64,000 nt of DNA from positions 535,033-599,032 of the forward strand of contig JASEGC010000001.1 of NCBI GenBank assembly GCA_030018415.1, given 5' to 3'. This document shows positions 8,021 through 52,696 of the stretch, in pieces. The notes below the pieces were generated by a model. That model saw nothing but the letters and a program-made list of their open reading frames with translations. It was not told the origin of the DNA and ran no database searches. The stretch's first letter is position 1, and each line of letters starts with the position of its first letter. The DNA comes from Candidatus Aenigmatarchaeota archaeon (GTDB lineage Archaea; Aenigmatarchaeota; Aenigmatarchaeia; CG10238-14). Both the position numbers and the translations under genes were made by a program.

Positions 8021-8326
8021 TCATTTATCTTCAATTTCTTCTCCCTCAAGTTCTTCGGTTGCTTCTTCTTCAACTTTTTTTTCTTTCCCAACTTTTTCAC
8101 CGATCGCAAACCTTCTGCTCACTTGGTTTATTCTTATTTTACATTTGTCTCCTTTCTTTGTATCAGGTACAAAGACGACAAAATTCTTAACTCTAGCTAT
8201 ACCATCTCCTCTAGACCCAACTTCATTTATCTCAACGTCGTATGTTTCGCCTTCTTTCACAGGTTTTTCAAACCTTCTTTCAAAGTCTCTTTCACCGAAT
8301 CTCGGTCTTGAGAACCTTCTTTCCAT
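8021..8326 (-). CDS. TRAM-domain protein
   Basis: 101 aa. The segment VKEGETYDVEINEVGSRGDGIARVKNFVVFVPDTKKGDKCKIRINQV is a classic stand-alone archaeal TRAM domain, followed by an acidic tail. Confidence 0.7.
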   Translation of the reverse strand: MERRFSRPRFGERDFERRFEKPVKEGETYDVEINEVGSRGDGIARVKNFVVFVPDTKKGDKCKIRINQVSRRFAIGEKVGKEKKVEEEATEELEGEEIEDK

Positions 8327-8447
8327 GTTTTAACCTCCTTAGTAACTACCCAGAAAAAACTGAGTAGAAATTTTAAGAATTAGACACTCTAAACTTCAAT
8401 CCTCCTGAATTCAATGAAAATGTATTCATGAATCACATTTAAATAAT

Positions 8448-11073
<2,626 letters not shown>

Positions 11074-11159
11074 CTAATCACTGTTAGTGTTTATTTACAC
11101 TATAACTATGTACGAAAAAATTTATAAAACTATCGAAATGCTTGTTTATCGATGTAGGG

Positions 11160-12254: not shown

Positions 12255-12339
12255 ACGAACACTTGGTAGAAAATTATCTCTTGAAATATTAATTTATATC
12301 TTTTTTGTTCAAACTTCACGACAGAATATAAAAGTTATT

Positions 12340-13162
12340 TTATAATTTAATTAATTTCTTCATCCTTTCTAAGAATTCTTCTGCGGTGTTTACAAGATAG
12401 GTGGCTGTATCGAGCGAGTATATGTATCTGTAATCTACATCTTCTCTAGATGAGGTAGCAGCTCTAAAATCGTTGATATATTTTGACTCCAACTTTCCAT
12501 CTCTACTCAATCTTTCTAAAATAATTCCAATTACAAAATATCTTCTTTCTTTAAACCTCATGGAAAATAAGACTGCTCTTGCAGCACGAAACATTGAATA
12601 GTATGCTTTAATTATACACCATTTAGTATCATCCTGTTTTAATGCAACCCTAGCTCTATCTAAATCATATTTTGCTTTTTATAATTTTTTGTCGACCAAT
12701 TTTTTATCGATTTTTACCTTTGTAATATATCCTTTTTCTACTAAATCTTCTACTCTCATACCAATCGGGTCTTTTCTGGCCATAGAACTCCATTCTAATT
12801 CTGTGTATATACTTGGTTTAATCCTTCTCCCGATTTTTTGTTCAATGTTTCTGATAACATCGAAGATGCCTTTCTCTTGTCTTCCTACCGTAAAGGAAGA
12901 TTTGTACATTTTTTATGTCTTTGAGATGAGGTAGTAGTTTAACGATGTTGAACAAAATTTTTAATTGTCTCGTCACAGCAAATTCTAGGTCTACTTTGTA
13001 TATTTTCATCCTACCTTTAGTTGTTTGAATGAGTAAGTTAAGGCTTGACAATATTTTTAGCCATTTATTGACAGTTGCTCTTGCCAGTTTTGTCTTTTTC
13101 CTTACTCCAGTTTCACTAAACTCTTGTTTAGGGTTTTCTAAGAAGAAATTTAAAATTTTCAT
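12340..13162 (-). pseudogene. Degraded wHTH-nucleotidyltransferase-HEPN gene (MNT/HEPN-type module)
   Basis: Three consecutive ORF pieces are present. 13162-12842 encodes a wHTH plus ..VQIFLYG. A frameshift leads to 12909-12679. An in-frame TAA at 12679-12681 is followed, in the same frame, by KAKYDLDRARVALKQDDTKWCIIKAYYSMFRAARAVLF..., a HEPN-like helix pair continuing to 12340. Confidence 0.45.
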
Positions 13163-13380
13163 CGGAGCTTCTTTATCTAGGATTTCATTCAGTTACATTA
13201 ATAAAAGCAATTTTATCGTTTTGGAATTTTTATCGTTCATCAAAATGTTTATATAGTGAAAAAAAACCAAAATTAGTTACATGAATATGGATTTCTTTAA
13301 TGAAGAAAAAAATTTTCTTCCAGAGATAAGCTTATGTATAAGCTTTTTGAAAGTATTAACATGGTTTTGGTGGTTACTCG

Positions 13381-16300: not shown

Positions 16301-16908
16301 CTAAGATAACTCCTGGTGTTGCAGAGATATGGCACGTGTTCAACCCTGAGATCGGTCTGAAACTCATAAACATTACAGTAAGAAATCCAGCTAACTTGGT
16401 TACGATAACTGTTACTAAGCTTGAGGATAAACCAGCTTCAGTCGTGCATGAGATAATTGGGAAAGTATACAAGTACATGGAGATAGAAGCAAAGAATCTT
16501 CCCGACGAGAACGTAGACAAAGCAAAAATACAATTCCAAGTTAACAAATCATGGATTGCAAACAACAACATCGACAGAACTACTATAGCTTTGAACAGAT
16601 ACCATGCTAACAGGTGGGATAAGTTACCGACCCAGGAAGTTGAAGAGGATGATGATTATGTTTATTATGAAGCTGAGAGTCCAGGCTTTTCAACGTTTGC
16701 TATAACTGGTGAGGAAAGAGTTTTAGCGACAACAACACTAGTTCCAACAACCACAGTTTTAACAACAACCACAGTTTTAACAACAACCACTATTCCACCA
16801 AAACCAGTAGTTGAGAAAGCACCATCTTGGGTTTTAGCAGTAATAATGCTGGTAGTTTTGGTAATAATCGTTGTATGGTTGTACCAAAGACGTCCTTCTA
16901 CCAAGTAG
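13381..16908 (+). CDS. Giant cell-surface glycoprotein: tandem Ig-like repeats, PGF-pre-PGF domain, poly-Thr linker, C-terminal TM anchor
   Basis: 1175 aa with a signal peptide and four ~90-aa repeats (NPVDLY.N......YLYRD....YAYKVN.TG..NYT.NS.GLTYY..(V/I)NK). The C-terminal WSKITPGVAEIW...YVYYEAESPGFSTFAITGE matches the PGF-pre-PGF domain. TTTVLT repeats, a TM helix and a QRRPSTK tail follow. Confidence 0.85.
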   Translation: MKFILNRKSLMLFSLFLLGFFVVNFVLPVFAEMFPGAGPYSNETGSLMPVWVNTSGADGKIDMFFANGNTVYIVANISCSLPAVCNQSIIADANFTEIGILESGGFRQGVYKTNATDGSWVLFEFNGTINLTNIQMIQVKMVYVNATAAYNTSENITQGLLAPVLVVNMSTFGCPPADDPNVQFPVVPGWNISNPSQPVLPPGIQAQGCTQNTTLCANMDTFGPGTWDDVANQWKVCVPDFSNSATTNLTAIADTGDFSNISSFTIEVPGKAKIVFNTNVSFASRTESQAIMEFAMKSLMTGGKIGMNDSEWNGEGGRPNLNRSATLTIYNISQYFPINGRPQIFRYPTHRSTIGGEICPANICSGFLWDGENITFTVFSFSDYGLADAINVTLQSPENFTYVNIRNVNFTYIPEWDASVTMKNCTLYGNFTGTWAANATNQSALVNGTVNGINNTVSSDGPYLWNVYCYNETDQYDYYSLNWTVTVDTVEPQWSNNQTDIVTTYSPSTLSYFNISWTDSNGISKVFIEGNWSGPQNYSMFNLAGDVYSFNVTLPAGTFYWKSYSNDSANNWNVSDTWYFTINKAPNPVDLYFNGTKNSNRTYTYPEVSNVTGTTSVGTAYLYRDSSSVTNPEIITLGNATHAYKVNSTGDQNYTDNSTGLTYYILVNKGTPDVKTFIDDSASNKTVTYPTTVTVKGNSTTTITPPTFNLYISSLNSSGNPATITTEQGAGTYAVIYNTSGNANWTTATNSTLYLIVSQNSTNPVDLYLNNQLNTNVTITYGIQSNATGVALYANSGTLYLYRDEVDVTSTENDQLITLAAKPTGYAYKVNITGNVNYTSNSSGLTYYLFINKAPTEIALSLNGTRGNNSYQVGQVANFTVTLNVSGKYVNLTTNISGWVDQTNVTPLMNYTTLSTAGTYNITGYWLGDANYSFDSETWYATVVTTTTTTTTTITIPSGGGRAPRPPQASRIWSKITPGVAEIWHVFNPEIGLKLINITVRNPANLVTITVTKLEDKPASVVHEIIGKVYKYMEIEAKNLPDENVDKAKIQFQVNKSWIANNNIDRTTIALNRYHANRWDKLPTQEVEEDDDYVYYEAESPGFSTFAITGEERVLATTTLVPTTTVLTTTTVLTTTTIPPKPVVEKAPSWVLAVIMLVVLVIIVVWLYQRRPSTK
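16747..16790 (+). repeat. 18-nt tandem repeat (about 2.5 copies) encoding TTTVLT in the Thr linker
   Basis: ACAACCACAGTTTTAACA occurs twice in tandem, at 16747-16764 and 16765-16782, followed by a partial third copy. Confidence 0.8.
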
Positions 16909-17343: not shown

Positions 17344-17433
17344 AAAGGAAAAGGATATAAGAGAAAGCTTTACTTTTTCGGAATGCAAATATGATGAGAA
17401 GTTTTTTTTGGGCGATTGAACAATATATTATTG

Positions 17434-20400
17434 ATGAGACAATCATTAGTGTTTTTGTTAACTCTTTCCATATCATTCCTTTTAATTACTTCAATTTCTC
17501 AACAGCTCTTCTCAAGAGGAGAACATTTGAAGAAGTTGGACTGGGAGTTAAAAGAATCGGTTTATTCCAAACCTAACGAAAAAGTTAGGGTTATTGTTTG
17601 GCTTGATAAAAGCAATGGATTAAGTGATCTGGAAAGAATTGGAAAAGTTAGGTATGATTATGATGTCATCTCAGCGGTGGCGATGGAATTATCGTCTGAT
17701 CAACTGGAAAATTTAGCGAGGGTGTCGAGCGTAAAAAAGATTGTCTTAGACAGAGAAATTAGAGCATTCAGAATAGAGAGCATGGCTATTATAAAGGCAA
17801 GCACGGCTGCTAGCAATTTTAACGTTAATGGTTCCAACATAAACATTTCAATAATCGACACTGGCATCTTCAACCATACAGAATTTCAGACTCCAAATAG
17901 GATAGTGAAACAGAAATGTTACTGTAACGTTGCACCAGGCAATTGTTGTCAAGGTTTAAAGGAGAGTGAAAATGCAACGGATGATCATGGTCATGGCACG
18001 CATTGCGCAGGAATTGCGGCAGGAGAGGGAAATGGCCATGGCCATGGTGTTGCCACGAACGTTTCATTGTTTGCCGTAAAAGTCTTGAATGCTTCTGGTT
18101 CAGGAACTGAGTCAGATTTGATAGCAGGTATTGATTGGGCTGTGAGGAATGGGACGAACATAATCTCTTTAAGTCTCGGAGCAACTTTTGATCAATTTAC
18201 AGATTGTTATGAAGTAACTTCCTCAGAGGTTGTGGACAATGCGACAAAACAAGGAGTTGTCGTCGTTGTTGCTGCGGGAAATGAGGGATCATACGGGAAT
18301 GAAACTATCGCAGCTCCTGGATGTGCGAAGAGAGCTATAACAGTAGGAGCTGTGGATGATGCAGATAGCATAGCATCATTCTCTTCTAGAGGTCCAACAA
18401 CAGATAACAGAACAAAACCAGATTTAGTTGCTCCAGGTGTGAGTATAACATCAACAACTAACGGTTTAACTTCTTATGGCTCTGCTTCAGGGACTTCTCA
18501 AGCAACTCCTCATGTAGCTGGAGTAGCTGCTTTGTTGATGCAGAGATTCCTACAAACTCATGGTTATTTGCCAGAACCAGATAGAGTTAAGGCTATACTC
18601 TTGACAGCTGTCAACACAACTGGGATGAATGCGAGCGGATATCAACAGAGGAATAACGTCTATGGAGCAGGAAGGATCGATGCATACGAGGCCTTGAGGA
18701 TAATAAATTTCACGAAAAACAAAACGATATCCCAAGGGCAAGAAGATGATTACAAAATAAATGTTACGAATAATGATTTCAAAGTGACTCTATATTGGCC
18801 AGAGGATGAGGATACAAACAACAATCTAGACTTGATAATCAGGAACTTCACCGATCCTACAAAAAACATTTCATTTTCAACCCATGCAAACGACTCGATC
18901 GAGCAGGTCTTTGTAAGAAATGCTAGCAATGGATTCTGGGAAGTTTTTGTTAGGGGTGTTGTAGGTACAAATCAAACTTATTACCTCGCTTCGAACGTGG
19001 AGATTCTTGAGGATGTGACACCTCCTAGCTTAGTTTTGGTTCGACCAGAGAATAAGACTTACACGAACAGAACGAACATTCCACTCAACTTTTCAACAGA
19101 TGAAACCAATCATACTGTATGGTATACTCTAGACGGTGAGAACGAGACTGTGATAACAGGTAACACAACTTTTAATGTGAGTTCGGATGGTCCACACAAC
19201 ATAACTCTTTATGTGAACGATTCTTACAACAACATTAACCAAAGCACTCAGTACTTTTCTGTTGATACAGTTCCACCTGTGATAAGCATAGTATCACCAG
19301 TTTCGAATGTGACGATGAATTACAGCACTAAGATGATCTGGTTTAACATATCTTTGAATGAACATGGCAACGTAAGTTTGTTTTCAGTCGATGCAGGCGA
19401 AAATTTTACTATGGATAGAATGAATGATACTTACTTCTACAATCTTTCAACTATACCGGAAGGATTTCATAGCGTAGCTTTCTATGTTAACGATAGTGTA
19501 GGCTGGACTAATAGCTCAAGCGTAAACTTCACTATCATGATCAATCCAAACATCACTGATTCGAGGGTTGATAAGAGATTGGTGCTCCTGAACGAAAGCG
19601 TGAACATAACTGCAAACATCTTTGACGATAATCTAGCTTCTGTCTTGACCAACATAACCTGGCCTAACGGGATTTATAGCTTAAGGAACATGTCTAATTC
19701 TTCTTCCATGTATTATTATCTTTTTAACGCGACTAACCAGACTGGAAAATATAACGTTTTGATTATCGTGAACGATACATTTGGTAATGAGAATAATGCA
19801 TCTCTTGAGTTTGAAGTGTCAGGAGCAGTTAATGTTTCTTCAAACGTGATGAATGGCACGACAGCAATAAATGTTTCTGTAATTGTTCTTTACAATGGAA
19901 CTAATCACGTGAGGAATGAGACTACTAATACAAGCTTTGAGTTCATCCTTCCTGCAGGATTATGGGATTTAAGATTTAACACAACACGATTGAACGTTAC
20001 GCTGTTCAGTACAAACTTGACTGAGAACTTAACGAGAGAGATAAGATTGAATGATGATGTACGGATGAGCTATGTACTTACAAATGTTAGGTCTATAAAG
20101 ACAGTCGCACTTAAGTTTGAAAATTTCACTTTTTCTTCGGCAAACTTAACCTTCTCCTTTGATTCAAGTCTTGTTAACAATCGAAGCAACTTAGAAGTTT
20201 ACAGATGTCAAGGTTGGAGTTTTGCTAATTCCGATTGTGAAAGTAGTTGGCAAAGGGATTCGAGCGACGATACTTTTAACGCAACCATCAACGAAAACAA
20301 CGTTACTTTGATTACTTCAAATTTCTCCTCTTTCTCTTTGGGTGAGAATGAAACAATTACGACAACTTCTACATCTACAACGACTACTATTTCTGGTGGA

Positions 20401-20712
20401 GGTGGGGCGATAACGACAACTTCTACGACAATCCCGATAACAACTTCTACCACAATCCCGATAACAACTTCTACGACAGTCTCAATAACAACTTCCACTG
20501 TTCTTGAAACCACAACCTTACCGATTGGGGTGAGCGAAAGAGAAATAAGTCATCTCTGGTTTTCACCTTTGATAGTTGTTTTTGTTGTTATTTTGGCTGT
20601 TGTCGTTTATTATTTAAGATTACGTAAGAAACCTGGAGTGGACGAAGTTTTTGAAGATTTGAAGGAGAAATGGAGTCAGCATACTTTTGTGGTGAGGCTC
20701 TCATTCACGTAG
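17434..20712 (+). CDS. Subtilisin-like serine protease (S8) with I9-like propeptide, multiple Ig-like domains, poly-Thr repeat and TM anchor
   Basis: The catalytic triad motifs are IIDTGI (Asp), HGHGTHCAG (His) and SGTSQATPHVAG (Ser). The signal peptide is MRQSLVFLLTLSISFLL. The ORF track starts at a TTG at 17416; I prefer the ATG at 17434. The C-terminus has TTSTTIPI repeats followed by a TM helix. Confidence 0.9.
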   Translation: MRQSLVFLLTLSISFLLITSISQQLFSRGEHLKKLDWELKESVYSKPNEKVRVIVWLDKSNGLSDLERIGKVRYDYDVISAVAMELSSDQLENLARVSSVKKIVLDREIRAFRIESMAIIKASTAASNFNVNGSNINISIIDTGIFNHTEFQTPNRIVKQKCYCNVAPGNCCQGLKESENATDDHGHGTHCAGIAAGEGNGHGHGVATNVSLFAVKVLNASGSGTESDLIAGIDWAVRNGTNIISLSLGATFDQFTDCYEVTSSEVVDNATKQGVVVVVAAGNEGSYGNETIAAPGCAKRAITVGAVDDADSIASFSSRGPTTDNRTKPDLVAPGVSITSTTNGLTSYGSASGTSQATPHVAGVAALLMQRFLQTHGYLPEPDRVKAILLTAVNTTGMNASGYQQRNNVYGAGRIDAYEALRIINFTKNKTISQGQEDDYKINVTNNDFKVTLYWPEDEDTNNNLDLIIRNFTDPTKNISFSTHANDSIEQVFVRNASNGFWEVFVRGVVGTNQTYYLASNVEILEDVTPPSLVLVRPENKTYTNRTNIPLNFSTDETNHTVWYTLDGENETVITGNTTFNVSSDGPHNITLYVNDSYNNINQSTQYFSVDTVPPVISIVSPVSNVTMNYSTKMIWFNISLNEHGNVSLFSVDAGENFTMDRMNDTYFYNLSTIPEGFHSVAFYVNDSVGWTNSSSVNFTIMINPNITDSRVDKRLVLLNESVNITANIFDDNLASVLTNITWPNGIYSLRNMSNSSSMYYYLFNATNQTGKYNVLIIVNDTFGNENNASLEFEVSGAVNVSSNVMNGTTAINVSVIVLYNGTNHVRNETTNTSFEFILPAGLWDLRFNTTRLNVTLFSTNLTENLTREIRLNDDVRMSYVLTNVRSIKTVALKFENFTFSSANLTFSFDSSLVNNRSNLEVYRCQGWSFANSDCESSWQRDSSDDTFNATINENNVTLITSNFSSFSLGENETITTTSTSTTTTISGGGGAITTTSTTIPITTSTTIPITTSTTVSITTSTVLETTTLPIGVSEREISHLWFSPLIVVFVVILAVVVYYLRLRKKPGVDEVFEDLKEKWSQHTFVVRLSFT
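20416..20500 (+). repeat. 24-nt tandem repeat (about 3.5 copies) encoding TTSTTIPI
   Basis: The units are ACAACTTCTACGACAATCCCGATA, ACAACTTCTACCACAATCCCGATA and ACAACTTCTACGACAGTCTCAATA, followed by a partial copy. Confidence 0.8.
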
Positions 20713-21191
20713 ATAGGCACGTTTGTCCTTACTGCTAGAGCTATCGCATCGCTCGGTCTTGAGTCGACGATCAAGAAACGATTCCCCCTCTGCAAAGTTA
20801 ATTCTGCATAGTAAGTGTTCTCTGAAAGCTTAGTTATCTTAACCATGATTGGCTTAACATCAAATCCTTCTAAAACATTCACGAATGTATCATGAGTCAT
20901 CGGTCTGAATTTCGTCACGTTAGATATTCCTTCTGATATGGCTGAAGCTTGATCTGGTGAGATGTAGAATGACAGTTCTGAACAGTCTGATTTTAACTGA
21001 ACGACTGCAAGTTTATCGACTGAGATAACTTTTTCTAACCTCATTTCAATAAAGCCCTCTGTTGCAAAAATTTTTCTAGTTTGTACATATCCGTAGAGTG
21101 AATAGATAGAAATCGCGATCAAGATCAAGATGATGATAGTTAAAGAATACATCAACCTTCTCTTTCTTCTAGAGCGTGTATACCAAATCAT
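20676..21191 (-). CDS. Bifunctional nuclease family (BFN/DUF151) protein with N-terminal TM anchor
   Basis: 171 aa. The N-terminus RSRRKRRLMYSLTIIILILIAISIYSLYGYV is a positive-inside signal-anchor. The BFN motifs RPMTHD ... VDSRPSDAIALAVRTNVPIYV are present. Confidence 0.7.
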   Translation of the reverse strand: MIWYTRSRRKRRLMYSLTIIILILIAISIYSLYGYVQTRKIFATEGFIEMRLEKVISVDKLAVVQLKSDCSELSFYISPDQASAISEGISNVTKFRPMTHDTFVNVLEGFDVKPIMVKITKLSENTYYAELTLQRGNRFLIVDSRPSDAIALAVRTNVPIYVNESLTTKVC

Positions 21192-23603: not shown

Positions 23604-23700
23604 AAGGTAGAAAATCTTTTTATTTTTAAAGAAAATAATTTTCTGATTAATAGAAGTTAAAATCTTAAATATTATGACAGATTTAAATTTAAATCTTTTA
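23604..23700 (+). promoter_or_regulatory. Bipartite upstream cassette, copy 1 (block A AAGGTAGAAAATCTTTTTATTTTT; block B TATGACAGATTTAAATTTAAATCTTTTA)
   Basis: Blocks A and B begin 69 nt apart. Block B is TATA-box-like. The GGAGGT Shine-Dalgarno and the ATG at 23740 follow. Three more copies occur in the window. Confidence 0.7.
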
Positions 23701-23739
23701 TTTCCTATCATATTACCATTAAAGATGGAGGTAGAATAA

Positions 23740-24762
23740 ATGAATAGTAAACTCTTTGTAGTAGTGACTTCAGCGATACTGCTCTTAACAGCAGTTCCAG
23801 TTTTTGCAGCAGACTTTCCAGTAGAAGCACCTGTGCCGAACCGTGAGCCAAGGGTCTTTGAATGCGGTAAATGGTTCGACATAGGAATTGAAGATACTGG
23901 AGTAGGCAGTGACGCAGGCGTAAACCCAACTGAATGGCGTCTTGGTATGTATGCTTTCACAGGAGAGAACATACACTGGATAGTGGTAGTCAGGGATTTG
24001 AATGGTGCAGAAGACATAAGTTATGCTAAAGTAACAGTTGATGGGCTAACAGAGGCTCTATGTCGACCAATAATTATGGGTGACGGAGAATGCTACGATG
24101 AGGTACCAGCATGGGAAACAGCACAAGACGGATTCGATTCAAGGTTTGACAAAGCCTTCGAATGTATAGTGACAGTAGAGCCACAATGGTACGGTGGCAG
24201 TTCAGTCAACATAGACGGATATGATCAAACAGGAGCATACAGCACGATGGATGTGGCAGAGCAATGGTTCTTCAACCCAGCAATTATAGTAGATCTTGAC
24301 ACGAACGATGGTGCTCCGAAGATTTGGTTTGAACAAAGACCGTTAGGACAAAAGGCACCATCAGGAAACAGACTAGAAATAACAAACCTAGCAGAAGGTG
24401 GAGTACTTCTTTGGCTATGGATTTCAGCGGACGACTTGACAGACCCAACAAACTCAGGTGCAATCTGCCCTGACAGCAATGTTCTAGATGTTGATCAATA
24501 TATGGAATACAAGGGTCAGATAGGTACTTTCATCGGTCCTTGGAGCTACATTACGAACCCAAGTGCGATAGATGGGTGCGAGATACCACCTGCGACATGT
24601 GAAGGAGCACAACCGCTATTAGGTCCGGGAACTGATCCACTAACAAATATCTTAGGCAACATGCTAACAGCAGAAGTACAATTTAGATTAGAGTATCCAA
24701 TACCATGTACACCAGGAACTTTCACGCAAGGATTGATCCACATAATAGTGAGAGCAGTCTAA
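23740..24762 (+). CDS. Secreted protein of unknown family, compositionally atypical
   Basis: 340 aa with the signal peptide MNSKLFVVVTSAILLLTAVPVFA and GGAGGT 7 nt upstream of the ATG. There is no TM anchor, no Thr linker and no valid N-x-S/T sequon. GC content is visibly higher than in the neighbouring genes. Confidence 0.75.
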   Translation: MNSKLFVVVTSAILLLTAVPVFAADFPVEAPVPNREPRVFECGKWFDIGIEDTGVGSDAGVNPTEWRLGMYAFTGENIHWIVVVRDLNGAEDISYAKVTVDGLTEALCRPIIMGDGECYDEVPAWETAQDGFDSRFDKAFECIVTVEPQWYGGSSVNIDGYDQTGAYSTMDVAEQWFFNPAIIVDLDTNDGAPKIWFEQRPLGQKAPSGNRLEITNLAEGGVLLWLWISADDLTDPTNSGAICPDSNVLDVDQYMEYKGQIGTFIGPWSYITNPSAIDGCEIPPATCEGAQPLLGPGTDPLTNILGNMLTAEVQFRLEYPIPCTPGTFTQGLIHIIVRAV

Positions 24763-24815
24763 GACCTTTAAAGAGCTGAAGAAAACTTTGGTCTCTTTTT
24801 CTTTTTATTTTTTAA
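24762..24815 (+). terminator. Possible terminator: short hairpin plus T-rich tract
   Basis: AGACC(ttt)AAAG ... CTTTGGTCT can pair, and CTTTTTCTTTTTATTTTTT follows immediately after the stop codon of the 340-aa gene. Confidence 0.35.
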
Positions 24816-24871: not shown

Positions 24872-26296
24872 ATGAAAAAATACATTCTTTTAGTAACAGG
24901 ATTAATAATAGCAACCGTTCTAGGTTCTATCGTATTCGCGTATGTTCCGAATAAAGACAAGATGGATGATTTTCTAAAGGAAAAACTCCAAGAATTAAAA
25001 GATGGCGAAAACATTTCTGTTATAATAGTTTTTGAAAAAGAACCTTTTCCAAGAATGGAAGGAGAGATAGAGAATAGATTCCACATCATTCCGGCTATTT
25101 CAGCAAAAATTTCTGCTAAAGAAATCCGAAAATTATCAGAATCGAAAGAAATCAAGAAAGTTTACCTTAACAAAAAAGTTCATATACTCTTAGACGATTC
25201 AGTCTCGATGATCAAAGCGGATAAAGTGCATTCAGAAGGAATTGATGGTACAGGAGTTAAAGTTTGCATCGTTGATACAGGTGTGGACGATTCTCATCCC
25301 TATTTAAAACGATTAATTGCAGAGTACGATTTTGTTAACAACGATAGCGATGCTACAGATGATAACGGACATGGTACACACATAGGAGGGATAATCGCAT
25401 CACAACATCCGACTTACAAAGGTGTTGCGCCAGGATCTTCATTGATAGCAGCAAAGGTTCTAGATGCAAGTGGTTCTGGAAATTACAATGATGTCATGGC
25501 AGGTATCGAGTGGTGTGTTGATAATGGAGCAAACGTAATTAGTCTAAGCCTAGGTGGAGAAAGGACGTACACCGGAAATTGTGATGATGACATCTTGGCT
25601 ATATTGGTTAATAATGTTGTTGCAGATGGCGTGATAGTCTCTGTTGCGGCAGGAAACTCTGGAAAATATGGAATAAGTAGTCCTGCTTGCGCTTCTAAAG
25701 CGATCGCTGTGGGTGCTGTGGATAAGAACAAAAGAGTGATAGGTTGGTCGAGTAAGGGTTCAGAACTTGACATAGTCGCGCCAGGAGTCGATATCTACTC
25801 TACTTACTTGAACAACGGATGGAGATCTCTATCAGGGACTTCTATGGCTACCCCGCATGTGGCAGGAGTGACAGCATTATTGTTGCAAACAAAACCTGGT
25901 GCAACAGTGGACGAAACAGCGGACCCAGTCAGCGCATGCTACGAATGTTTGTGGTGGGGGTCATGTTTGAATGGATACTATAGGAGGGTTTTATGTACAT
26001 CAAGTGTACAAGGAGCTGGAATAGTGGATGCTTACGAGGCATATCAATCGTTAAGACCATCACCTACACCTACAACTACTACAACATCGTCTACAACAAC
26101 CACGAGTACAACAATTGTGACTACCACAACGACAGCTCCAACGACAACCACGATTCCATCAACTTGGCAAGAATGTTACAACTACTGTAGAGATGGAATA
26201 ACAAACCTACCAAAAACTTGTTGCGCATATTCTTGGATAATTTTTCATGTCAAGTATGGTTACTGTCGAAACGAGCCAAGAGATATTTGCGATTAA
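24872..26296 (+). CDS. Secreted subtilisin-like serine protease (S8) with I9-like propeptide, Thr linker and C-terminal Cys-rich domain
   Basis: The triad motifs are VCIVDTGVD, DDNGHGTHIGG and SGTSMATPHVAG. The linker is PTPTTTTTSSTTTTSTTIVTTTTTAPTTTTIPS. The C-terminus is WQECYNYCRDG..CCAYS...CRNEPRDICD, with no TM helix. Confidence 0.9.
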   Translation: MKKYILLVTGLIIATVLGSIVFAYVPNKDKMDDFLKEKLQELKDGENISVIIVFEKEPFPRMEGEIENRFHIIPAISAKISAKEIRKLSESKEIKKVYLNKKVHILLDDSVSMIKADKVHSEGIDGTGVKVCIVDTGVDDSHPYLKRLIAEYDFVNNDSDATDDNGHGTHIGGIIASQHPTYKGVAPGSSLIAAKVLDASGSGNYNDVMAGIEWCVDNGANVISLSLGGERTYTGNCDDDILAILVNNVVADGVIVSVAAGNSGKYGISSPACASKAIAVGAVDKNKRVIGWSSKGSELDIVAPGVDIYSTYLNNGWRSLSGTSMATPHVAGVTALLLQTKPGATVDETADPVSACYECLWWGSCLNGYYRRVLCTSSVQGAGIVDAYEAYQSLRPSPTPTTTTTSSTTTTSTTIVTTTTTAPTTTTIPSTWQECYNYCRDGITNLPKTCCAYSWIIFHVKYGYCRNEPRDICD

Positions 26297-26458: not shown

Positions 26459-28795
26459 ATGGTGAAAAACATGAAAAAAATCTTTTTCATCTCAGTGCTA
26501 TTAATTTTCCTAATTATACCGTCTGTCATCGCGTGCTCGAGTCCAGTCGTTTATAACGAGTATGGCGTCCCTATTTCTCTGTATGGGAATGGAATATTAA
26601 CGATCAACGGAAGCAAGTATGATTCAAGTATTTCCCTATTACAGTACAACTTAACAGTGAGCAACACGAACAATCAAAGTTTCACTATCAACTTTAATTC
26701 ATCTCCAGATCTCCTAAACTATGTTTTTGGCAACACTGCGACTCTTGACCCTAACGAGAAAAGGAAGGTTCCTATTTATGTATACATAGATGGCGATGAT
26801 AAAGTCGGAGAAATCAGAGTAACTGGCCAATGTGCAGATGGAATGAGTATGCCGTATTCCTCAACTTATTACTCGTTCTTTAAGTTAGTCATAGACGGCA
26901 GGAACATAAAACCGCCGAACGTGACTGGCTGTGAGAACATATACCAGATGAACGGATGCTACGATGGATACTACAGGAATTATTACTGCAGCAACAACAC
27001 TCCTCAATACTCTGAATCCTGCACTTCTTATTGCTGTCAGAAAAAGGCTGGAAAAGATGGATACTGTCAGAACAATGTTTGCATAGATCCTATAACTTGT
27101 GAGGATGAGTGTTCTTTCACAGGGAGAGAGTGTCGAGATGGCGATGCTTACTCTTGTGTTCTTGAGGAAGATGGTTGTTACCATCTTGTGTTAAAAGAGG
27201 AATGTGGAGATGATGTTTGTATAGACGGTCAATGCGTCAGCTCTTCTATACACGGAAAGATCGCATTCTTATGTCAAAGTGATGATTGTAACGATGGCAT
27301 TGAGAGTCAGTTGATATCCTGGTTGAATTCTAAAGGCTGGATTGTAGATACCAAGGCATACGATTCTTGGGATGATGAAGAGTTGGATGATTACGATGTC
27401 ATGATGTGTTCAGATCAACTGAAAGCTTGCAAGATTTCTCCAAAATCTCCTGTCTACATCGAGCATAAACTTCAGAATAAACCTTTCATCGAAATCTCAG
27501 ATTACAGAGAGGCTCAGTCTGCCTATGCTTTCAACTACGTCAAAACCCCTTATGGATACTTGGAGAAAGGTAAGAGCATTTTCATCACCAAGACCGAAGA
27601 CCCAATAACTGAGGTATTTTCCACCAAGACCAAGATATTCTCAGACGATAAAAAAATTACAGTCATGCCAGATTATCGTTTGACATCTCTCTCTGTAGAT
27701 TTAGCAGATGTGGAAGAGGATAAAGGCAGGTCGACTCTGTTCAAGGTTGACTCGCTAACAAGATATGCCTACGTAGGATGGTTCTACAAAGCATCAGTGT
27801 TTGATTTGACAGAAGACGGTAAAAAATTGCTTCTAAGAACTGTCCTTTGGGCAGCATGTGGCGATGAGTGTTTTGACCCTTCCAGTAGGAATCGTCCCCC
27901 GGTCGCGAAAGCTATGATAATACCGATCGCGTATGAAGGCATGATTGTTCTATTTGATGCATCGCAGTCTTATGACCCAGAAAACCAAACATTAACTTAT
28001 TACTGGGATTTTGGGGATGGTTCTAATTCAGGCTGGATTTCCGAGAGTATCACGACTCATGTTTACGATTCTCAAGGCATTTTTAACATTACTTTGATAG
28101 TCAGCGATGGCGAATTGGATTCGATTCCAGACATAAAAACACTCACCATACTTCCAAAGATCAAGAATAGGATTGCTTTTGTCTGTGGCAAGGAAGGTTG
28201 CATAAAAGATACAGAACAAGAATTGATGAAATTCTTGCAAGACAACGGATATTTTGTCGAGGGAAGAACACAGGATTCTTGGACAGATGAAGACTTGAAC
28301 AATTTTGACTTCATGGTATGCTCAGATGCTGTCAAGGGCTGTGGCATCAAATCATGGACTGCTGTTTTCGATAGACATGCTAACAAGATGATGGGATTCC
28401 TCGAGATTTCAGATTATCAATACATCAGGGCAGGCTACAAGTTCGGTTACACGAGTACTTATAGCGGCTATTATTCCAAGGACAGGAGTATAAAGATAGT
28501 GGGAAACGACCCGATAACGTCTGACCTTTCAGGTAAAGTTTATAATAGAGACGACATCATGGGTGGAATCTTCACTTCTTCTTTGGAGCCAGTCGCGATA
28601 AACTTAGTGAACATGAACAAGAAGGATGTGTCGGTCTTGTTTAAGGTTGATACAAACGAAAAACATGGGAGGTATGCTTATGTTGGTTGGTTCTATAGAT
28701 CTTCCATAAAAGACTTAACAGATGATGGCAAAAAAATGCTCTTGAGAACGATCAGATGGGTTCAGTGTGGAAATGTCGAAGGTTGTATTCAGTAA
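26459..28795 (+). CDS. Secreted multidomain protein: Ig-like N-domain, Cys-rich module, two copies of an unknown ~200-aa alpha/beta domain flanking a PKD domain
   Basis: 778 aa with a signal peptide; an alternative ATG at 26471 is preceded by GGTGA. The PKD signature is VLFDASQSYDPENQTLTYYWDFGDGS. The duplicated domain reads ..IAF(L/V)C......(E/T)(S/Q)(Q/E)L...L...G(W/Y).V......SW.DE(E/D)L(D/N).(Y/F)D.M.CSD...RYAYVGWFY..S..DLT.DGKK.LLRT..W. Confidence 0.8.
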   Translation: MVKNMKKIFFISVLLIFLIIPSVIACSSPVVYNEYGVPISLYGNGILTINGSKYDSSISLLQYNLTVSNTNNQSFTINFNSSPDLLNYVFGNTATLDPNEKRKVPIYVYIDGDDKVGEIRVTGQCADGMSMPYSSTYYSFFKLVIDGRNIKPPNVTGCENIYQMNGCYDGYYRNYYCSNNTPQYSESCTSYCCQKKAGKDGYCQNNVCIDPITCEDECSFTGRECRDGDAYSCVLEEDGCYHLVLKEECGDDVCIDGQCVSSSIHGKIAFLCQSDDCNDGIESQLISWLNSKGWIVDTKAYDSWDDEELDDYDVMMCSDQLKACKISPKSPVYIEHKLQNKPFIEISDYREAQSAYAFNYVKTPYGYLEKGKSIFITKTEDPITEVFSTKTKIFSDDKKITVMPDYRLTSLSVDLADVEEDKGRSTLFKVDSLTRYAYVGWFYKASVFDLTEDGKKLLLRTVLWAACGDECFDPSSRNRPPVAKAMIIPIAYEGMIVLFDASQSYDPENQTLTYYWDFGDGSNSGWISESITTHVYDSQGIFNITLIVSDGELDSIPDIKTLTILPKIKNRIAFVCGKEGCIKDTEQELMKFLQDNGYFVEGRTQDSWTDEDLNNFDFMVCSDAVKGCGIKSWTAVFDRHANKMMGFLEISDYQYIRAGYKFGYTSTYSGYYSKDRSIKIVGNDPITSDLSGKVYNRDDIMGGIFTSSLEPVAINLVNMNKKDVSVLFKVDTNEKHGRYAYVGWFYRSSIKDLTDDGKKMLLRTIRWVQCGNVEGCIQ

Positions 28796-28796: not shown

Positions 28797-29078
28797 CTAC
28801 ATAGGAATTCCGAATGCTTCTGTTAACCTTTTTACTTTCCTAAGCTCGTTTATGTGATCATAACCCTTGGGCGTGAGTTTGTAGAACGTTCTATCATTCT
28901 TCTTAACTTCCTCTATAAAATCGTTAGATAAGAGTAAACTCAGGTATTCTTTAAGGGAAGAATGCGATAAGTTAGCACCGTACATGATATGCGTTGGCTT
29001 GGCTTTTCCATCCTCTCTCTGGATTATGTTCAGGATGTCCATCAATATAAGGAGTTTTGACCTTCGCTTCACTTGCAA
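28797..29078 (-). CDS. Small winged-helix transcriptional regulator (COG3432/HTH_45-like)
   Basis: 93 aa. The segment LILMDILNIIQ....AKPTHIMYGANLSHSSLKEYLSLLLSNDFIEE.....FYKLTPKGYDHINEL is the typical archaeal wHTH pattern. It overlaps the upstream 7TM gene by 10 nt. Confidence 0.65.
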   Translation of the reverse strand: MQVKRRSKLLILMDILNIIQREDGKAKPTHIMYGANLSHSSLKEYLSLLLSNDFIEEVKKNDRTFYKLTPKGYDHINELRKVKRLTEAFGIPM

Positions 29079-29698
29079 ACCACCCGGATAAGCATGTAGA
29101 GGAGGGAAACAAAGCCAGTGATCAAGAATATGTTAGCGACGAAGTACACCGACCCGCTAAACGGTGTTAACAACAAAAGGAGGTGAAATACTAGTATCGA
29201 CGTAAAAGCATAAGTCACAAGACCAGAATTCAAGTTTTTTTTCTCCTTCAGGTTGGCTGCGCATCTAAAAACGATGAAAGAAATTAACGCAACAGATAAC
29301 ACGTGGAACTCGAAGGAGCTAGCATACCAAATTGGAACGAAGAGTATGAAGAACTTACTCCTAAGTTTTTTCGGAAGGTACGACAGGAACAACATAAAAT
29401 AAGCAAACAATGAGACGATGTAGTAAAGCCTGAAACCGTAGTAGTTGATCAAGTTGATGCTTATACTCGAACCATGATACAATTCAAGAGTAGCATAAGT
29501 AAATAGGCTCGGGACGCTCAACACCAAAAATCCCAAACCAAGAGTTAGAAAACCTAAGAAAAGAAAAAGATGAGATTTTTCAGACGTTATCCTGTGGGCT
29601 TTAAAACCGAAGTAGCTGACGAGAAAACAGATTATCGCTGAGCAAGTATAGAAGATTGAGGTGACAGCATAGAACCAAAGAGGTATGAGTTCTGTCAT
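29069..29698 (-). CDS. Polytopic (about 7 TM) membrane protein, possible sensor partner of the wHTH
   Basis: 209 aa with about seven hydrophobic helices and no soluble domain. It is translationally coupled to the wHTH gene downstream. Confidence 0.55.
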   Translation of the reverse strand: MTELIPLWFYAVTSIFYTCSAIICFLVSYFGFKAHRITSEKSHLFLFLGFLTLGLGFLVLSVPSLFTYATLELYHGSSISINLINYYGFRLYYIVSLFAYFMLFLSYLPKKLRSKFFILFVPIWYASSFEFHVLSVALISFIVFRCAANLKEKKNLNSGLVTYAFTSILVFHLLLLLTPFSGSVYFVANIFLITGFVSLLYMLIRVVCK

Positions 29699-29883: not shown

Positions 29884-29980
29884 AAGGTAGAAAATATTTT
29901 ATTTTTTCCTAGAAAGATTTTTTAGAAGAGTACTAAGCAAAAGAAGGAATTTTATGACATATAAATTTAAATCTTTAACT
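29884..29980 (+). promoter_or_regulatory. Bipartite upstream cassette, copy 3
   Basis: The sequence is AAGGTAGAAAATATTTTATTTTTT ... TATGACATATAAATTTAAATCTTTAACT. AAGGTAG to TATGAC spans 69 nt. It lies in the divergent intergenic region between the 7TM/wHTH pair and the 624-aa gene. Confidence 0.7.
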
Positions 29981-30005
29981 ATTAAGTACTAATAATGTGT
30001 TGTGA

Positions 30006-31880
30006 ATGAAAAAAATTTTGTTCATCGCTACGTTAGCAACTCTATTCTTGATAACTTCGGTTATCTCAACTACGATTTACGTCCGTCCAGGAAAATTGAT
30101 AGTTCATGCAGATGATTATCCTAATGCAACCTCTGTCGTTTATAACTTAACGCTCAGGAATGATAACGAGTTTCCAGTCATAGTTTCTTTCGTCAAGTCA
30201 GGAAACATCCAAACCCTTATTACAATCTTAGAGGATGGGTTCACGATGGAACCTGCTGAAATGAAGGATGTAGGCTTAGAAATAAGTTTGACAGGTCCAG
30301 CCACGGCTTCGGGCACCATCACAGTTGGGTTTACCCCATCTGAAGGTCAAGGGATGCCAGTGACTTATGGAGTGGATGTCACGATCTACGGAAGGGGTGG
30401 AGGCACGACAAAGAAGTGTGCTGGGACGAAAACTTCTTGTGGAACTTATCCAGACTGTAAAGATCTGACGAAATTAGACGGATGTTACAACGGTTATAAA
30501 AGGAGTTATTATTGTTCGAACAACCAACCAAAATATTCTGAATCATGCACGGATTACTGTTGTCAACAATTCTACGGGAGCGTAGGGAAATGCCAGAGCG
30601 GGGTTTGTAAAGGCCAAGCTTCTCCACCACCAGTTAAACTAGTTCTTAACATAACAAATGGATTAGGAGGTACTAGATCTGCAAAGATCACTCTTTATAT
30701 CCCAGGTACTAGTACGATCGTGAACACTTCAACTATCAACGGTTACGGCACGATTCATTCTTCAAATTCAACCGTAGATTTCATGATGGAATTCGATTCT
30801 TCTATACTGATTGTTCTACTGAAAAGCTTAAACCTGACAAAATTATCTGGAACTTCACAGATAATCATAGATGTTGTACCTACTTCGATCCCGAACGTGT
30901 CTCTAATTAAAGCATACAAAATTTCAATCCCAAGTACTTTCTCGTTTACAGGAATAATCTTGAAGATCAAATATTCTACTCTGTCTTTTGGAAACGAGCA
31001 AGGTTTAGCCATCTACAAATGTGGTTCTTATAACGATTTAACGAATGTATGCAATGATAATTGGGTTAAAATCAGCGCAACAAGAGATACTGTCAACGAC
31101 ATAATATCAGCAGAACTTTCGAGTTTTTCTGTGTACGCTCTGGGAGAGTCACAACAAACAACTACCACGACCACGACTCTACAAACCACAACCACACAGT
31201 CATCTTCATCCAGCAGTAGAAGTAGCGGTGGAACAACCACAACGACAACAATCCCTGAAACTCAAGGGAGTTTAACTTGTTCTGATGACGATGGGACAAA
31301 CTATGAGAACAAGGGTACTTGCACTCTGGATGGTTCAACTTACACAGATTTTTGTTCGAGTAACACAGCTTTGAGAGAATTCTACTGTTCCGATAGTATT
31401 TGTGCGATGGAGGAAAAGGATTGTGATGCCTACTGTAAAGAAAAACACGGACAGAACCAAACAGGAACTTGTTCGCAGGGTGCATGCGTCTGTAAGGAGA
31501 TCGTTATAGTAGAAGAAGTGAAGGAAGAGGGTAAGAAACCAACAGGTTTGTTCATCGATATTTTGGGAGCTAGCATAGCATCCAATGCATTCACAATAGG
31601 AACAGTCGTAGTCTTAGCTTCATTCGGGATATTCGGATGGAGGTATCAGGACAGACTGAAACAATTTTTCACGAGTACGTCTCATGGCAAATCAAAAGGT
31701 TCTTACTCTATTACCAGAGAAACACCGAGAGTTGGGTATGTCGAGATAAAGCCAGTAAAGAAAGAAATTGAACAACCAAAAGAACAACCCAGAGCACCAC
31801 CGATCGGGAATGATGTCAAGAATAAAGTGATAGAAGAGATAAGAAAAAGGGCAATAGAAGAGGATAGGAAGTTCAAATAA
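30006..31880 (+). CDS. Membrane-anchored surface protein: Ig-like N-domain, Cys-rich module A, beta-domain ending SSFSVYALGE, Thr/Ser linker, Cys-rich module B, TM helix, K/E-rich cytoplasmic tail
   Basis: 624 aa. The signal peptide MKKILFIATLATLFLITSVIS is paralogous to that of the 778-aa protein. Module A reads DGCYNGYKRSYYCSNNQPKYSESCTDYCCQ. The TM helix is FTIGTVVVLASFGIFGW. Confidence 0.75.
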   Translation: MKKILFIATLATLFLITSVISTTIYVRPGKLIVHADDYPNATSVVYNLTLRNDNEFPVIVSFVKSGNIQTLITILEDGFTMEPAEMKDVGLEISLTGPATASGTITVGFTPSEGQGMPVTYGVDVTIYGRGGGTTKKCAGTKTSCGTYPDCKDLTKLDGCYNGYKRSYYCSNNQPKYSESCTDYCCQQFYGSVGKCQSGVCKGQASPPPVKLVLNITNGLGGTRSAKITLYIPGTSTIVNTSTINGYGTIHSSNSTVDFMMEFDSSILIVLLKSLNLTKLSGTSQIIIDVVPTSIPNVSLIKAYKISIPSTFSFTGIILKIKYSTLSFGNEQGLAIYKCGSYNDLTNVCNDNWVKISATRDTVNDIISAELSSFSVYALGESQQTTTTTTTLQTTTTQSSSSSSRSSGGTTTTTTIPETQGSLTCSDDDGTNYENKGTCTLDGSTYTDFCSSNTALREFYCSDSICAMEEKDCDAYCKEKHGQNQTGTCSQGACVCKEIVIVEEVKEEGKKPTGLFIDILGASIASNAFTIGTVVVLASFGIFGWRYQDRLKQFFTSTSHGKSKGSYSITRETPRVGYVEIKPVKKEIEQPKEQPRAPPIGNDVKNKVIEEIRKRAIEEDRKFK

Positions 31881-31915: not shown

Positions 31916-32011
31916 AAGGTAGAAAATTTTTTTATTTTGCCTATAAAAGGAGAAAAATTTTCTATCTTCTTTAAAAAAGCTTTTTATGACAGATTAAATT
32001 TAAATCTTTAT
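31916..32011 (+). promoter_or_regulatory. Bipartite upstream cassette, copy 4
   Basis: The sequence is AAGGTAGAAAATTTTTTTATTTTG ... TATGACAGATTAAATTTAAATCTTTATT. AAGGTAG to TATGAC spans 69 nt. It lies upstream of the operon encoding the 159-aa, 877-aa, wHTH and 213-aa proteins. Confidence 0.7.
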
Positions 32012-32065
32012 TCCTTCATAGTGATAATAGAAGAAAAATAACCTCCCAGTAGTAACGTGATTTAC

Positions 32066-32536
32066 ATGAAAATGCTGTTTGCAGTTTTTATTGTCGTTTC
32101 CTTACTGATGATTCAATCGACTCTTGCTCTGACAGCTTATCTACGTCCTCCCAAGATGACGATTCGTCTGAACACTTCCGATACGATAGAAAGATCCTTG
32201 GAGATTAAAAATTTTAACAACATCACGATAGGCATCGGTACAAGAATTGTTGGGAATTTATCGGAGGTAGTGCGAATAGAAGAGTCAAGTTTTTATTTAG
32301 AGCCGAACGAAACGAGAACTTTGGATTTCAAAACAAAAGCAAACGATCCTGGAGTTTATGTCGGTGAGATACAAGTGACTTATTCAGCAAACTCTGGTCT
32401 ACCAGTTACTCTACCAGCTGAGATAATTGTCGTGGCAACGGAGAAATCAACACAAAATTACAACAATATTTTTATTTTAATCGTCACCCTAATCGTTGTA
32501 GTTGCCGCTATCATATTTATGAAAAGAGGGAGATGA
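32066..32536 (+). CDS. Small Ig-like (NEW3/CARDB-like) surface protein with signal peptide and C-terminal TM anchor
   Basis: This is the ORF-track entry 32057-32536, which starts at a GTG; the first ATG is at 32066. The protein is paralogous to the N-domain of the 624-aa protein (..[11 protein letters not shown]...[11 protein letters not shown]...[11 protein letters not shown]......[10 protein letters not shown]) and ends with a TM helix plus KRGR. Confidence 0.6.
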
Positions 32537-52694: not shown

Positions 52695-52696
52695 AA

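Follow-up and report, generated by a model that had tools for sequence, protein, structure and literature searches.

The gene at positions 23740 to 24762 (+ strand) of the 64,000-nucleotide stretch of Candidatus Aenigmatarchaeota DNA analyzed here (the window) encodes a secreted protein of 340 amino acids, the stand-alone version of an all-beta module not described before, which measures about 315 residues and comprises two beta-sandwich domains. The module occurs throughout the lineage, is seemingly highly expressed, and also terminates dozens of anchorless adhesin-like proteins. Our preferred reading, which we hold at about even confidence, assigns to the 340-residue protein the part of an abundant structural or retention subunit, without an anchor, in an extracellular assembly. 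The surface of the Aenigmarchaeota, uncultured DPANN archaea that are thought to live attached to a host, is almost uncharacterized, and the module provides a molecular handle on it and a target for antibodies, cryo-electron tomography, and host-binding tests.

An initial annotation of this DNA had listed the open reading frame (ORF) together with five antisense ORFs, all of which we find at the same positions, and had recognized no family in its product. Likewise, our searches of Pfam, NCBIfam, and the PDB (phmmer and profile) with the 340-residue protein returned no family; the best PDB sequence match, to an Fc-gamma receptor (E = 0.035), was judged spurious. Pfam, NCBIfam, and the PDB also gave no catalytic-domain match, and no well-known enzyme family could be assigned by homology. 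The Foldseek matches of domain 2 to GH123 cover the non-catalytic N-terminal domain of that family (TMt, 0.13 to 0.15). Homologues were retrieved by a single-sequence search (89), by a profile search with alignment A1 (130), and by an exhaustive HMMER search (238 clusters at 50% identity), while a genome scan with alignment A2 led to four loci. They are named only "hypothetical," "YegL," or "cysteine-rich repeat protein," and the latter two names describe fused passengers. The organism names attached to family members are Aenigmarchaeota or Aenigmatarchaeota only.

The protein starts with a Sec-type signal peptide (residues 1 to 23; 23740 to 23808, +), read from the sequence as MNSK, a hydrophobic core (LFVVVTSAILLLTAVPVF), and an A/AD junction. 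The predicted cleavage at VFA/AD is the one proposed initially, and both the hydrophobic core and the A/D junction are kept in the family (alignment A1). The mature protein has a mass of 34.7 kDa, a pI of 4.05, and eight cysteines. An AlphaFold2 (AF2) model built with 48 homologues is all-beta, with a mean predicted local distance difference test value (pLDDT) of 88.7 and a predicted template modeling score (pTM) of 0.78 for the whole protein; residues 178 to 340 modeled alone reach 92.3 and 0.87, respectively. Mean-field direct coupling analysis (DCA) of 196 sequences (effective number, 171) recovers sandwich contacts in both halves and agrees with the AF2 model.

According to both methods, a short N-terminal tail (residues 24 to 37), with which the module opens in the conserved motif ADFP...PRVFEC, precedes beta-sandwich domain 1 (about residues 38 to 181; tail and domain together 23809 to 24282, +). 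Domain 1 is outlined by DCA contacts 42-83, 85-137, 105-147, 72-146, and 80-174 and contains a hypervariable display loop, residues 109 to 136 (24064 to 24147, +), which is rich in insertions and deletions in alignment A1. The cysteines that flank this loop, C108 and C142, are the third-strongest pair in the DCA and are predicted to form a disulfide; the pair C280-C287 was recovered as well, and C243-C323 is probably a further disulfide. Domain 2 (residues 182 to 340; 24283 to 24759, +) is modeled by AF2 as a beta-sandwich of jelly-roll-like appearance. It holds the most conserved polar stretch of the protein, residues 208 to 250 (N.L.VTNLAEGG...AADDLTDP...CP.SNVLD), and closes with the conserved strand IHIIVRAV, so that the protein ends ...GLIHIIVRAV. 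The tail (residues 27 to 39) is placed by contacts 27-182, 31-224, and 39-195 on domain-2 strands 182 to 195 and 224, where it should be kept in mind that covariation cannot separate contacts within a chain from those between chains.

In agreement with the initial annotation, the 340-residue protein has no threonine linker and no transmembrane segment or other anchor. Its C terminus is a beta-strand of domain 2 rather than a transmembrane tail, and a substrate of the PGF-CTERM/archaeosortase or LPXTG type was rejected on these grounds. Likewise, two soluble, disulfide-bonded sandwiches do not fit an autotransporter-like beta-barrel. An isopeptide adhesin of the antigen I/II (AgI/II) C-terminal or CnaB type was also dismissed: none of the 48 aligned members shares an invariant lysine, K138 being replaced by R or L in several of them, and conserved cysteine pairs are found instead.

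Relatives use the module in longer proteins. When the family hidden Markov model was run over 232 members, 45 proved to be at least 450 residues long, and in 43 of these the module ends at the C terminus with 0 or 1 residue left. The N-terminal passengers identified by Pfam include VWA, DUF4215 and MopE Cys-repeats, disintegrin, right-handed beta-helix, and TSP_3 plus LTD domains. Other relatives carry insertions of 200 to 950 residues, beta-helix domains included, in the hypervariable loop that is bounded by C108 and C142, and a few consist of two or three tandem modules. Apart from the signal peptide at their N terminus, the fusion proteins show no hydrophobic segment, which leaves them without any anchor besides the module. 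In these proteins the first motif of the module, (D/E)FPPxIWxCDxR, lies directly behind the passenger, in cis. The ADFP... sequence at the mature N terminus of the 340-residue protein thus corresponds to the start of the module in the fusions, and the protein is the bare module. The presence of the N-terminal motif in cis also argues against tip subunits that lack an N-terminal strand. In two of the loci that we compared (L004 and L016; the loci are denoted here by our own numbers), passenger-bearing paralogues are located inside the same gene cluster.

A second property of the family is the scarcity of N-x-S/T sequons. As claimed initially, the 340-residue protein contains none, the only similar sites being N62-P-T and N273-P-S. 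For this protein alone, the absence is not significant (1.55 expected; P of finding none, 0.19), but it becomes so family-wide. The 89 closest homologues contain 45 sequons where 198.8 are expected (ratio, 0.23), and 61 of them have none at all; 187 stand-alone members contain 189 against 480.3 (0.39), and the modules within fusion proteins 69 against 160.3 (0.43). For the passengers of the same fusion proteins the figures are 181 and 244.9 (0.74), and for cytoplasmic proteins of the window 33 and 29.7 (1.11), while membrane-anchored surface proteins show ratios of 1.3 to 2.9. The heavily glycosylated neighbors carry one sequon per 16 to 17 residues and not one per 11, as had been estimated for the adjacent surface proteins in general; the other secreted proteins nearby, an S8 protease and a protein with a PKD domain, are likewise sequon-poor. 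As judged from sequence, then, sequon avoidance is a property of the family, while the same genomes appear to glycosylate their anchored surface proteins heavily. The family may be regarded as a natural experiment that shows where N-glycans are not tolerated.

The base composition of the gene requires a separate explanation. Its guanine-plus-cytosine (GC) content of 44.6% is, as the initial annotation had claimed, above that of the neighboring genes: it is the highest among the 39 ORFs of at least 150 codons (runner-up, 42.0%) and compares with 37.0% for the window and with 37.4 ± 2.7% for the other window genes (z = 2.8). This could be taken to indicate recent acquisition from a foreign source, the composition reflecting that of the donor genome, the more so because synonymous codon usage also deviates (z = 6.3, second most deviant in the window). 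The surplus, however, sits in codon positions 1 and 2 (55.7% and 43.7% GC), while GC at position 3 (GC3) is 34.3%, an ordinary value inside the range of the window. The protein is rich in G, A, P, D, E, and V and poor in K, and when it is re-coded with codon frequencies pooled from the other genes, a GC content of 44.4% is predicted against 44.7% observed. The GC excess is thus an amino acid effect. Of the low contents of K, N, and I that had been reported, that of K (2.1%) is real, N at 4.4% is somewhat low, and I, at 7.6%, cannot be called low.

The codon bias consists of an A-ending share of 56% at four-fold families, the highest among 39 genes, together with an NNC share of 55% at two-fold pyrimidine families. 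Nine other AT-rich loci from different genomes of the Aenigmarchaeota type encode proteins 38 to 50% identical to the 340-residue protein. In each of them the orthologue is the gene of highest GC content (0.40 to 0.425 versus 0.31 to 0.37 for the rest of the locus) and displays the same codon bias, with an A-ending share at four-fold sites of 0.51 to 0.64. Since composition and codon bias are kept across this degree of divergence, they are selected, not imported. It had been allowed initially that GC and codon usage might both turn out normal; GC3 does, but the deviating codon usage recurs in the orthologues of the nine loci. Silent-site composition that protein composition leaves unexplained, a patchy spread, lost synteny, and mobile elements, the usual marks of a foreign gene, are not what we observe: the gene cluster that contains the orthologues is conserved in at least eight loci, the gene has its promoter module (see below) in common with native neighbors, and no family member was found in a scan of viral contigs. 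A sequence 100% identical to the protein is annotated as hypothetical protein QMD36_03365 on a 610-kb contig of a Candidatus Aenigmarchaeota metagenome-assembled genome, and the gene is native to this DPANN genome. The horizontal acquisition that had been considered is already contradicted by these data, and we find it hardly credible. For the scanning of genomes the lesson is that a GC outlier may stem from amino acid composition alone. At silent sites, the composition that deviates most in the window is that of an operon on the minus strand encoding FIST, LuxE (acyl-protein synthetase), and LuxC (acyl-coenzyme A reductase; 50094 to 54085), with a GC3 of about 0.23 and an NNC share of 0.16 to 0.21; this operon is a better candidate for horizontal transfer than the gene for the 340-residue protein.

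Several signals around the gene suggest that its product is made in large amounts. A consensus Shine-Dalgarno sequence, GGAGGT (23727 to 23732, +), had been noted initially and is found 7 nucleotides before the ATG; a match of at least 6 nucleotides is rare, being shared by just one other of 40 window genes, and GGAGGT is kept in the orthologues of L001, L004, L008, L009, L011, L012, and L016. The 135 nucleotides upstream of the gene are 73% identical among seven genomes (shuffled baseline, 45%), which exceeds the identity of its own coding sequence (66%) and that of the upstream regions of neighboring conserved genes (50 to 58%), and conservation reaches to about position -230. Within this region a distal promoter box, AAGGTAGAAAATCTTTTTATTT (23604 to 23625, +), lies about 136 nucleotides before the ATG and is conserved in the orthologous loci. 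A proximal box, TTATGACAGATTTAAATTTAAATCTTTTATTTCC (23672 to 23705, +), forms an invariant block in seven orthologous upstream regions and includes a TATA-like sequence, TTTAAATC (23688 to 23695), embedded in a near-palindrome, AGATTTAA-AT-TTAAATCT. We infer that the proximal box may combine a TATA box with an operator. In the conserved leader RNAalifold detected no covarying structure and Rfam no match, and the leader is therefore read as promoter/operator DNA rather than as an RNA element. Past the stop codon, an oligo-T tract, TCTTTTTCTTTTTATTTTTT (24794 to 24813, +), has counterparts of the TTTTTTCTTTTCTTTTTT type downstream of six of seven orthologues; it is probably an archaeal terminator, which would make the gene monocistronic. 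Taken together, the Shine-Dalgarno sequence, the conserved codon bias, the conservation of promoter and leader, and the oligo-T tract are consistent with the highly expressed structural subunit that the initial annotation had suggested. An upstream ORF of 21 codons (23675 to 23739, +), peculiar to the window copy, starts with an ATG at 23675 and ends at a TAA directly before the main ATG. Orthologues have AAG or AGA at this position, and the upstream ORF is probably fortuitous.

The two boxes belong to a promoter module of about 120 nucleotides with three copies in the window, all of them on the plus strand and with the distal box (at 23604, 29884, and 31916) 120 to 140 nucleotides before a start codon (chance expectation, 0.00 to 0.03). 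Its consensus reads AAGGTAGAAAAT..TTTTATTT in the distal box and ..ATGACAGATT(T)AAATTTAAATCTTT in the proximal box. The first copy precedes the gene for the 340-residue protein. The second (29884 to 29905 and 29950 to 29979) precedes the gene for a 624-residue Cys-rich protein with a threonine linker and a transmembrane anchor (30006 to 31880; unit, 29884 to 31880, +), and the third (31916 to 31937 and 31988 to 32009) an operon of two genes (unit, 31916 to 35166, +). The operon encodes a transmembrane-anchored beta-sandwich protein of 159 residues (32057 to 32536) and a transmembrane-anchored protein of 877 residues with TSP3 and CARDB domains (32533 to 35166). The same arrangement of promoter modules is present in L009, L011, and the divergent L016, where the two copies are about 96% identical; in the distant loci L002 and L010 a search for repeated promoter motifs yielded nothing clear. 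In L011 a further copy is located before a giant surface-protein gene.

As read from the DNA, the three copies define a putative small regulon that would tie the anchorless 340-residue protein to three membrane-anchored proteins. Within this regulon, the consensus Shine-Dalgarno sequence and strong codon bias are found only on the gene for the 340-residue protein, as expected if far more of this product is needed than of its partners. A candidate regulator is at hand in a minus-strand operon (28797 to 29698) in which the overlapping genes for an HTH_45 winged-helix protein (28797 to 29078; Pfam E = 1.8e-20) and a 209-residue protein with six or seven transmembrane segments and a weak match to DUF7521 (29069 to 29698) are combined. 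This pair is conserved in L004, L008, L009, L011, L012, and L013, and is located amid the genes of the regulon; its members might act as regulator and membrane sensor of the island. The promoter module is of interest in its own right as a defined archaeal expression signal by which a small surface regulon, for which a candidate regulator is obvious, can be recognized.

The genes of the regulon, rather than that of the S8 protease, are the conserved partners of the gene for the 340-residue protein, together with the gene for the PKD protein. In close orthologues the order is a huge glycosylated surface protein, the 340-residue protein, in some loci an S8 protease, a PKD protein of about 780 residues, HTH_45 (-), the 209-residue multi-transmembrane protein (-), a Cys-rich transmembrane-anchored protein of 614 to 624 residues, and the transmembrane-anchored 159- and 877-residue proteins. 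The PKD protein of the window (778 residues; 26459 to 28795, +; Pfam PKD_4) is the most conserved downstream neighbor, with orthologues 44 to 50% identical adjoining that of the 340-residue protein in L001, L004, L006, L008, L011, and L012. It has no C-terminal anchor, and its signal peptide has a lipobox-like end of the type [LIV]x[AS]C (VIAC/SSP) in which the cysteine is present in eight of eight sequences, which makes it a candidate archaeal lipoprotein, lipid-anchored at its N terminus. The features extend to the orthologues of L001, L004, L006, L008, L011, L012, and L013. An N-terminal domain and a Cys-rich CYDGYYRNYYCSNN motif are common to the PKD protein and the 624-residue protein. 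The pair of genes for the 159- and 877-residue proteins is found near family members in L002, L006, L009, L010, L011, and L016; in L002, L010, and L016 these members are just 32 to 40% identical to the 340-residue protein.

On our preferred reading, the 340-residue protein would be exported by the Sec pathway, its signal peptide would be cleaved, and disulfides C108-C142, C280-C287, and probably C243-C323 would stabilize the mature form. Made in bulk, it would constitute the major, passenger-less subunit of an assembly on the surface of the archaeon. The module might associate with itself in a fiber or lattice, or it might dock on the co-regulated 624-, 159-, and 877-residue proteins and the putative PKD lipoprotein. 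The passenger-bearing paralogues, a minority, would be retained in the assembly via the same module and display their adhesive domains, and sequon avoidance would keep packing or binding surfaces free of glycans. The whole set would be co-regulated from the one shared promoter module with its near-palindrome over the TATA-like box, the HTH_45 protein and its multi-transmembrane partner being the candidate regulators.

The structural comparisons bear on the form that such an assembly might take. With domain 2 as the query, 20 of the top 50 Foldseek matches were protomers of donor-strand-exchange fibers (CfaB, FimA/F/G/I, PapA, the PapG pilin domain, CsuA/B, DraD, TasA, the Sulfolobus thread, and TLP-1a) at E = 2e-3 to 0.1 and template modeling (TM) scores of 0.3 to 0.51. 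None of the domain-2 matches reached E ≤ 1e-3, and donor-strand-exchange protomers were absent from the top 50 matches of the whole protein. The initial annotation had suggested a search for donor-strand or jelly-roll folds, and we treat the likeness of the modeled domain 2 to fiber protomers as a lead, not as membership. Together with the N-terminal tail, these model-based matches would point toward a fiber.

Like the 340-residue protein, the subunits of donor-strand fibers (CfaB, FimA/FimG/FimH, and PapA; TasA; the Sulfolobus threads; TLP-1) are beta-sandwich proteins that are exported by Sec and have a functional N-terminal segment. Such fibers combine one abundant major subunit with minor ones that bear an adhesive passenger at the N terminus and the subunit domain at the C terminus, as exemplified by FimH, and a like division is proposed here. 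The DCA contacts of the N-terminal tail with edge strands of domain 2 are a further point of resemblance; TLP-1a is known as the subunit of a donor-strand-exchange fibril (PMC11494351). In contrast, the subunit considered here has two domains and about 315 residues versus one domain of 130 to 230, the N-terminal strand motif of its family is in cis in the fusions too, and its gene is not accompanied by conserved genes for a chaperone, an usher, a dedicated signal peptidase, or another assembly factor. A kinship with TasA/M73 was rejected, since hhalign gave a probability of 0.6% against the M73 proteins of L014 and Pfam revealed no match to TasA/camelysin or pilin families. Locus L014 itself contains, beside the distant paralogues P0074 and P0083, a TasA-like set of minus-strand genes (8307 to 13589) for an M73 plus LTD protein, a Laminin_G_3 protein, an S24/S26 signal peptidase, and a second M73 protein, which recalls tapA-sipW-tasA and the archaeal bundling-pilus loci.

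It is conceivable, if rather improbable in our view, that the family represents a new extracellular polymer of DPANN archaea, a donor-strand-type fiber or lattice that requires no dedicated machinery, consists of an unglycosylated two-domain subunit, is tethered by co-regulated membrane proteins, and attaches to host cells by co-assembled minor subunits whose adhesin passengers (VWA, beta-helix, or Cys-repeats) are fused N-terminally or sit in a loop. With similar reserve, such a polymer might be pictured as pilus-like and unrelated to type IV pili, threads, cannulae, and TasA-like pili.

With the whole protein as the query, Foldseek against the PDB retrieved generic tandem beta-sandwich or Ig-like adhesin regions (TM scores, 0.17 to 0.3), namely, AgI/II C-terminal domains, the Ig and galactose-binding module of a sialidase, PrgB, RbmA, and MSCRAMMs, and against BFVD it retrieved DUF11. 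The best of these matches (E = 2e-5 to 1e-3) were the AgI/II C-terminal domains of the streptococcal adhesins BspA, AspA, SpaP, and SspB, tandem Ig-like adhesin regions, and RbmA. They have in common with the 340-residue protein that they are extracellular tandem beta-sandwich proteins, and RbmA is, in addition, secreted and anchorless. They differ in that TM scores are only 0.17 to 0.29 and identities 6 to 12%, and compared with the AgI/II domains our protein lacks an invariant isopeptide lysine and an LPXTG motif and has disulfides instead.

These matches are to the binding regions of adhesins, and they may be explained if the module binds a glycan, lipid, or protein of the host cell or matrix, the free form acting as a secreted binder or cross-linker like RbmA of Vibrio cholerae. 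We regard this as possible but distinctly less probable than a structural or retention role, and we grant the same limited likelihood to its corollary that passenger-bearing proteins use the module as their targeting end. A stretch of 45 almost invariant polar residues in domain 2 is typical of a binding site and points toward a pure ligand-binding anchor. The domain-2 matches also include GH123 N-terminal domains and CUB domains, and the VWA, beta-helix, and disintegrin passengers are interaction domains. An N-glycan-binding lectin would presumably gain from being unglycosylated itself. Moreover, DPANN archaea live attached to hosts (10.1101/2021.04.28.441871, 10.1101/2023.10.27.564410). Against ligand binding, a highly expressed free domain would compete with its passenger-bearing paralogues for the ligand, and the gene is clustered and co-regulated with membrane-anchored proteins of the archaeon itself. 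In addition, all structural matches have low TM scores, and Pfam recognizes no carbohydrate-binding module or lectin family in the sequence.

Retention by a shared terminal module has precedents in bacteria. The SLH and CWB2 modules and the C-terminal domain of type IX secretion system cargo also occur at a fixed end of anchorless paralogues with varied passengers. The archaeal module is unrelated to them in sequence and fold, is far larger than a sorting tag, and also exists in a free-standing, apparently highly expressed form.

An anchorless, beta-rich protein encoded with membrane-anchored partners is also reminiscent of two-component S-layers, in which SlaA forms the lattice and SlaB the membrane stalk, and of the DPANN S-layer candidates NEQ300, Micr_00292, and MJ1_0160; strong expression signals and a lineage-specific sequence are further points in common. 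The 340-residue protein might accordingly be proposed as a canonical S-layer protein, the sole protein of the lattice around the cell. The signals that suggest very high expression, the signal peptide, and the acidic pI of 4.05 would fit this proposal, as would the lack of an anchor in combination with co-regulated transmembrane-anchored partners (like SlaA with SlaB) and the fact that DPANN S-layer candidates show no homology in sequence to those S-layer proteins that are known. However, archaeal S-layer proteins measure 40 to 200 kDa, have few or no cysteines, and are usually N-glycosylated (10.1101/2021.04.28.441871), and the DPANN candidates are likewise unlike a small, Cys-rich, unglycosylated protein (10.1101/2021.04.28.441871, 10.1101/2023.10.27.564410). 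With a mature mass of 34.7 kDa, eight cysteines, and no sequon, the 340-residue protein departs from the large, heavily N-glycosylated S-layer systems in size, cysteine content, and sequons, the pI being the typical property that it does share. There is no sequence or fold match to these systems, as no S-layer family was identified in Pfam or NCBIfam, no sequence match in the PDB, and no S-layer structure among the top Foldseek matches.

The window also encodes a more classical candidate at 13381 to 16908 (+), a protein of 1,175 residues without a Pfam match in which a signal peptide and a Thr-rich stalk are combined with 70 sequons (one per 17 residues) and a C-terminal transmembrane segment. 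By its predicted features it has the classical architecture of an S-layer glycoprotein and appears a better candidate for the S-layer than the 340-residue protein, whose identity as a canonical S-layer protein we consider unlikely, to the point of being improbable.

A number of points also weigh against our preferred reading of the 340-residue protein as an abundant structural or retention subunit. The structural matches are generic and sub-threshold (TM scores of 0.2 to 0.3 for the whole protein and 0.3 to 0.5 for domain 2), and the conserved polar patch of domain 2 fits a ligand-binding site equally well as an assembly interface. The passengers of the fusion proteins are not sequon-rich, so that the contrast within these proteins is only about two-fold. 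The window contains no ribosomal-protein genes against which the codon bias could be calibrated, a further 6 kb beyond it contain only glycosylation genes, and the preference for NNA codons is not shared by its housekeeping genes for CDC48 and FBPase. Finally, the taxonomic range of the family rests on two organism names. No tRNA genes were detected in the window.

As the initial annotation had stated, a gene for a secreted S8 protease follows. It starts 110 nucleotides downstream (24872 to 26296, +) and encodes a subtilase (Pfam E = 1.7e-51) with a Tk-SP N-propeptide, an I9 inhibitor domain, a threonine linker, and a Cys-rich tail. The proximity could mean that the function of the 340-residue protein is tied to the protease, either as a substrate that needs maturation or as its inhibitor or chaperone, and matrix proteins of the RbmA type are indeed matured by secreted proteases. 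We consider this very unlikely. Apart from the window, an S8 gene adjoins the orthologue only in L008, while in L013 and L007 it is located upstream or close by, and it does not adjoin in L001, L004, L009, L011, L012, L002, L010, and L016. Furthermore, the gene for the 340-residue protein has a promoter of its own and, ahead of the S8 gene, a probable oligo-T terminator, and the protease carries its own I9/Tk-SP propeptide.

Several minor observations concern the surroundings. An archaeosortase-like gene (Exosortase_EpsH, 169 residues; 39647 to 40156) is followed by a DUF460 gene (pair, 39647 to 41271, -), and the same pair occurs 3 kb from distant family members in L014 (693 to 1837). Amid the surface-protein genes, a bifunctional-nuclease-domain (BFN) protein with an N-terminal transmembrane segment is encoded at 20676 to 21191 (-); the 3' end of its gene overlaps the end of another S8 gene (17416 to 20712). 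Toward the end of the window, a glycosylation cluster (59553 to 63756, -) encodes a PMT_2 mannosyltransferase-like protein, a carbamoyltransferase, and a GT2 glycosyltransferase; it continues past the window end (L015), where two more PMT genes and another GT2 gene are joined by a radical-SAM/SPASM gene.

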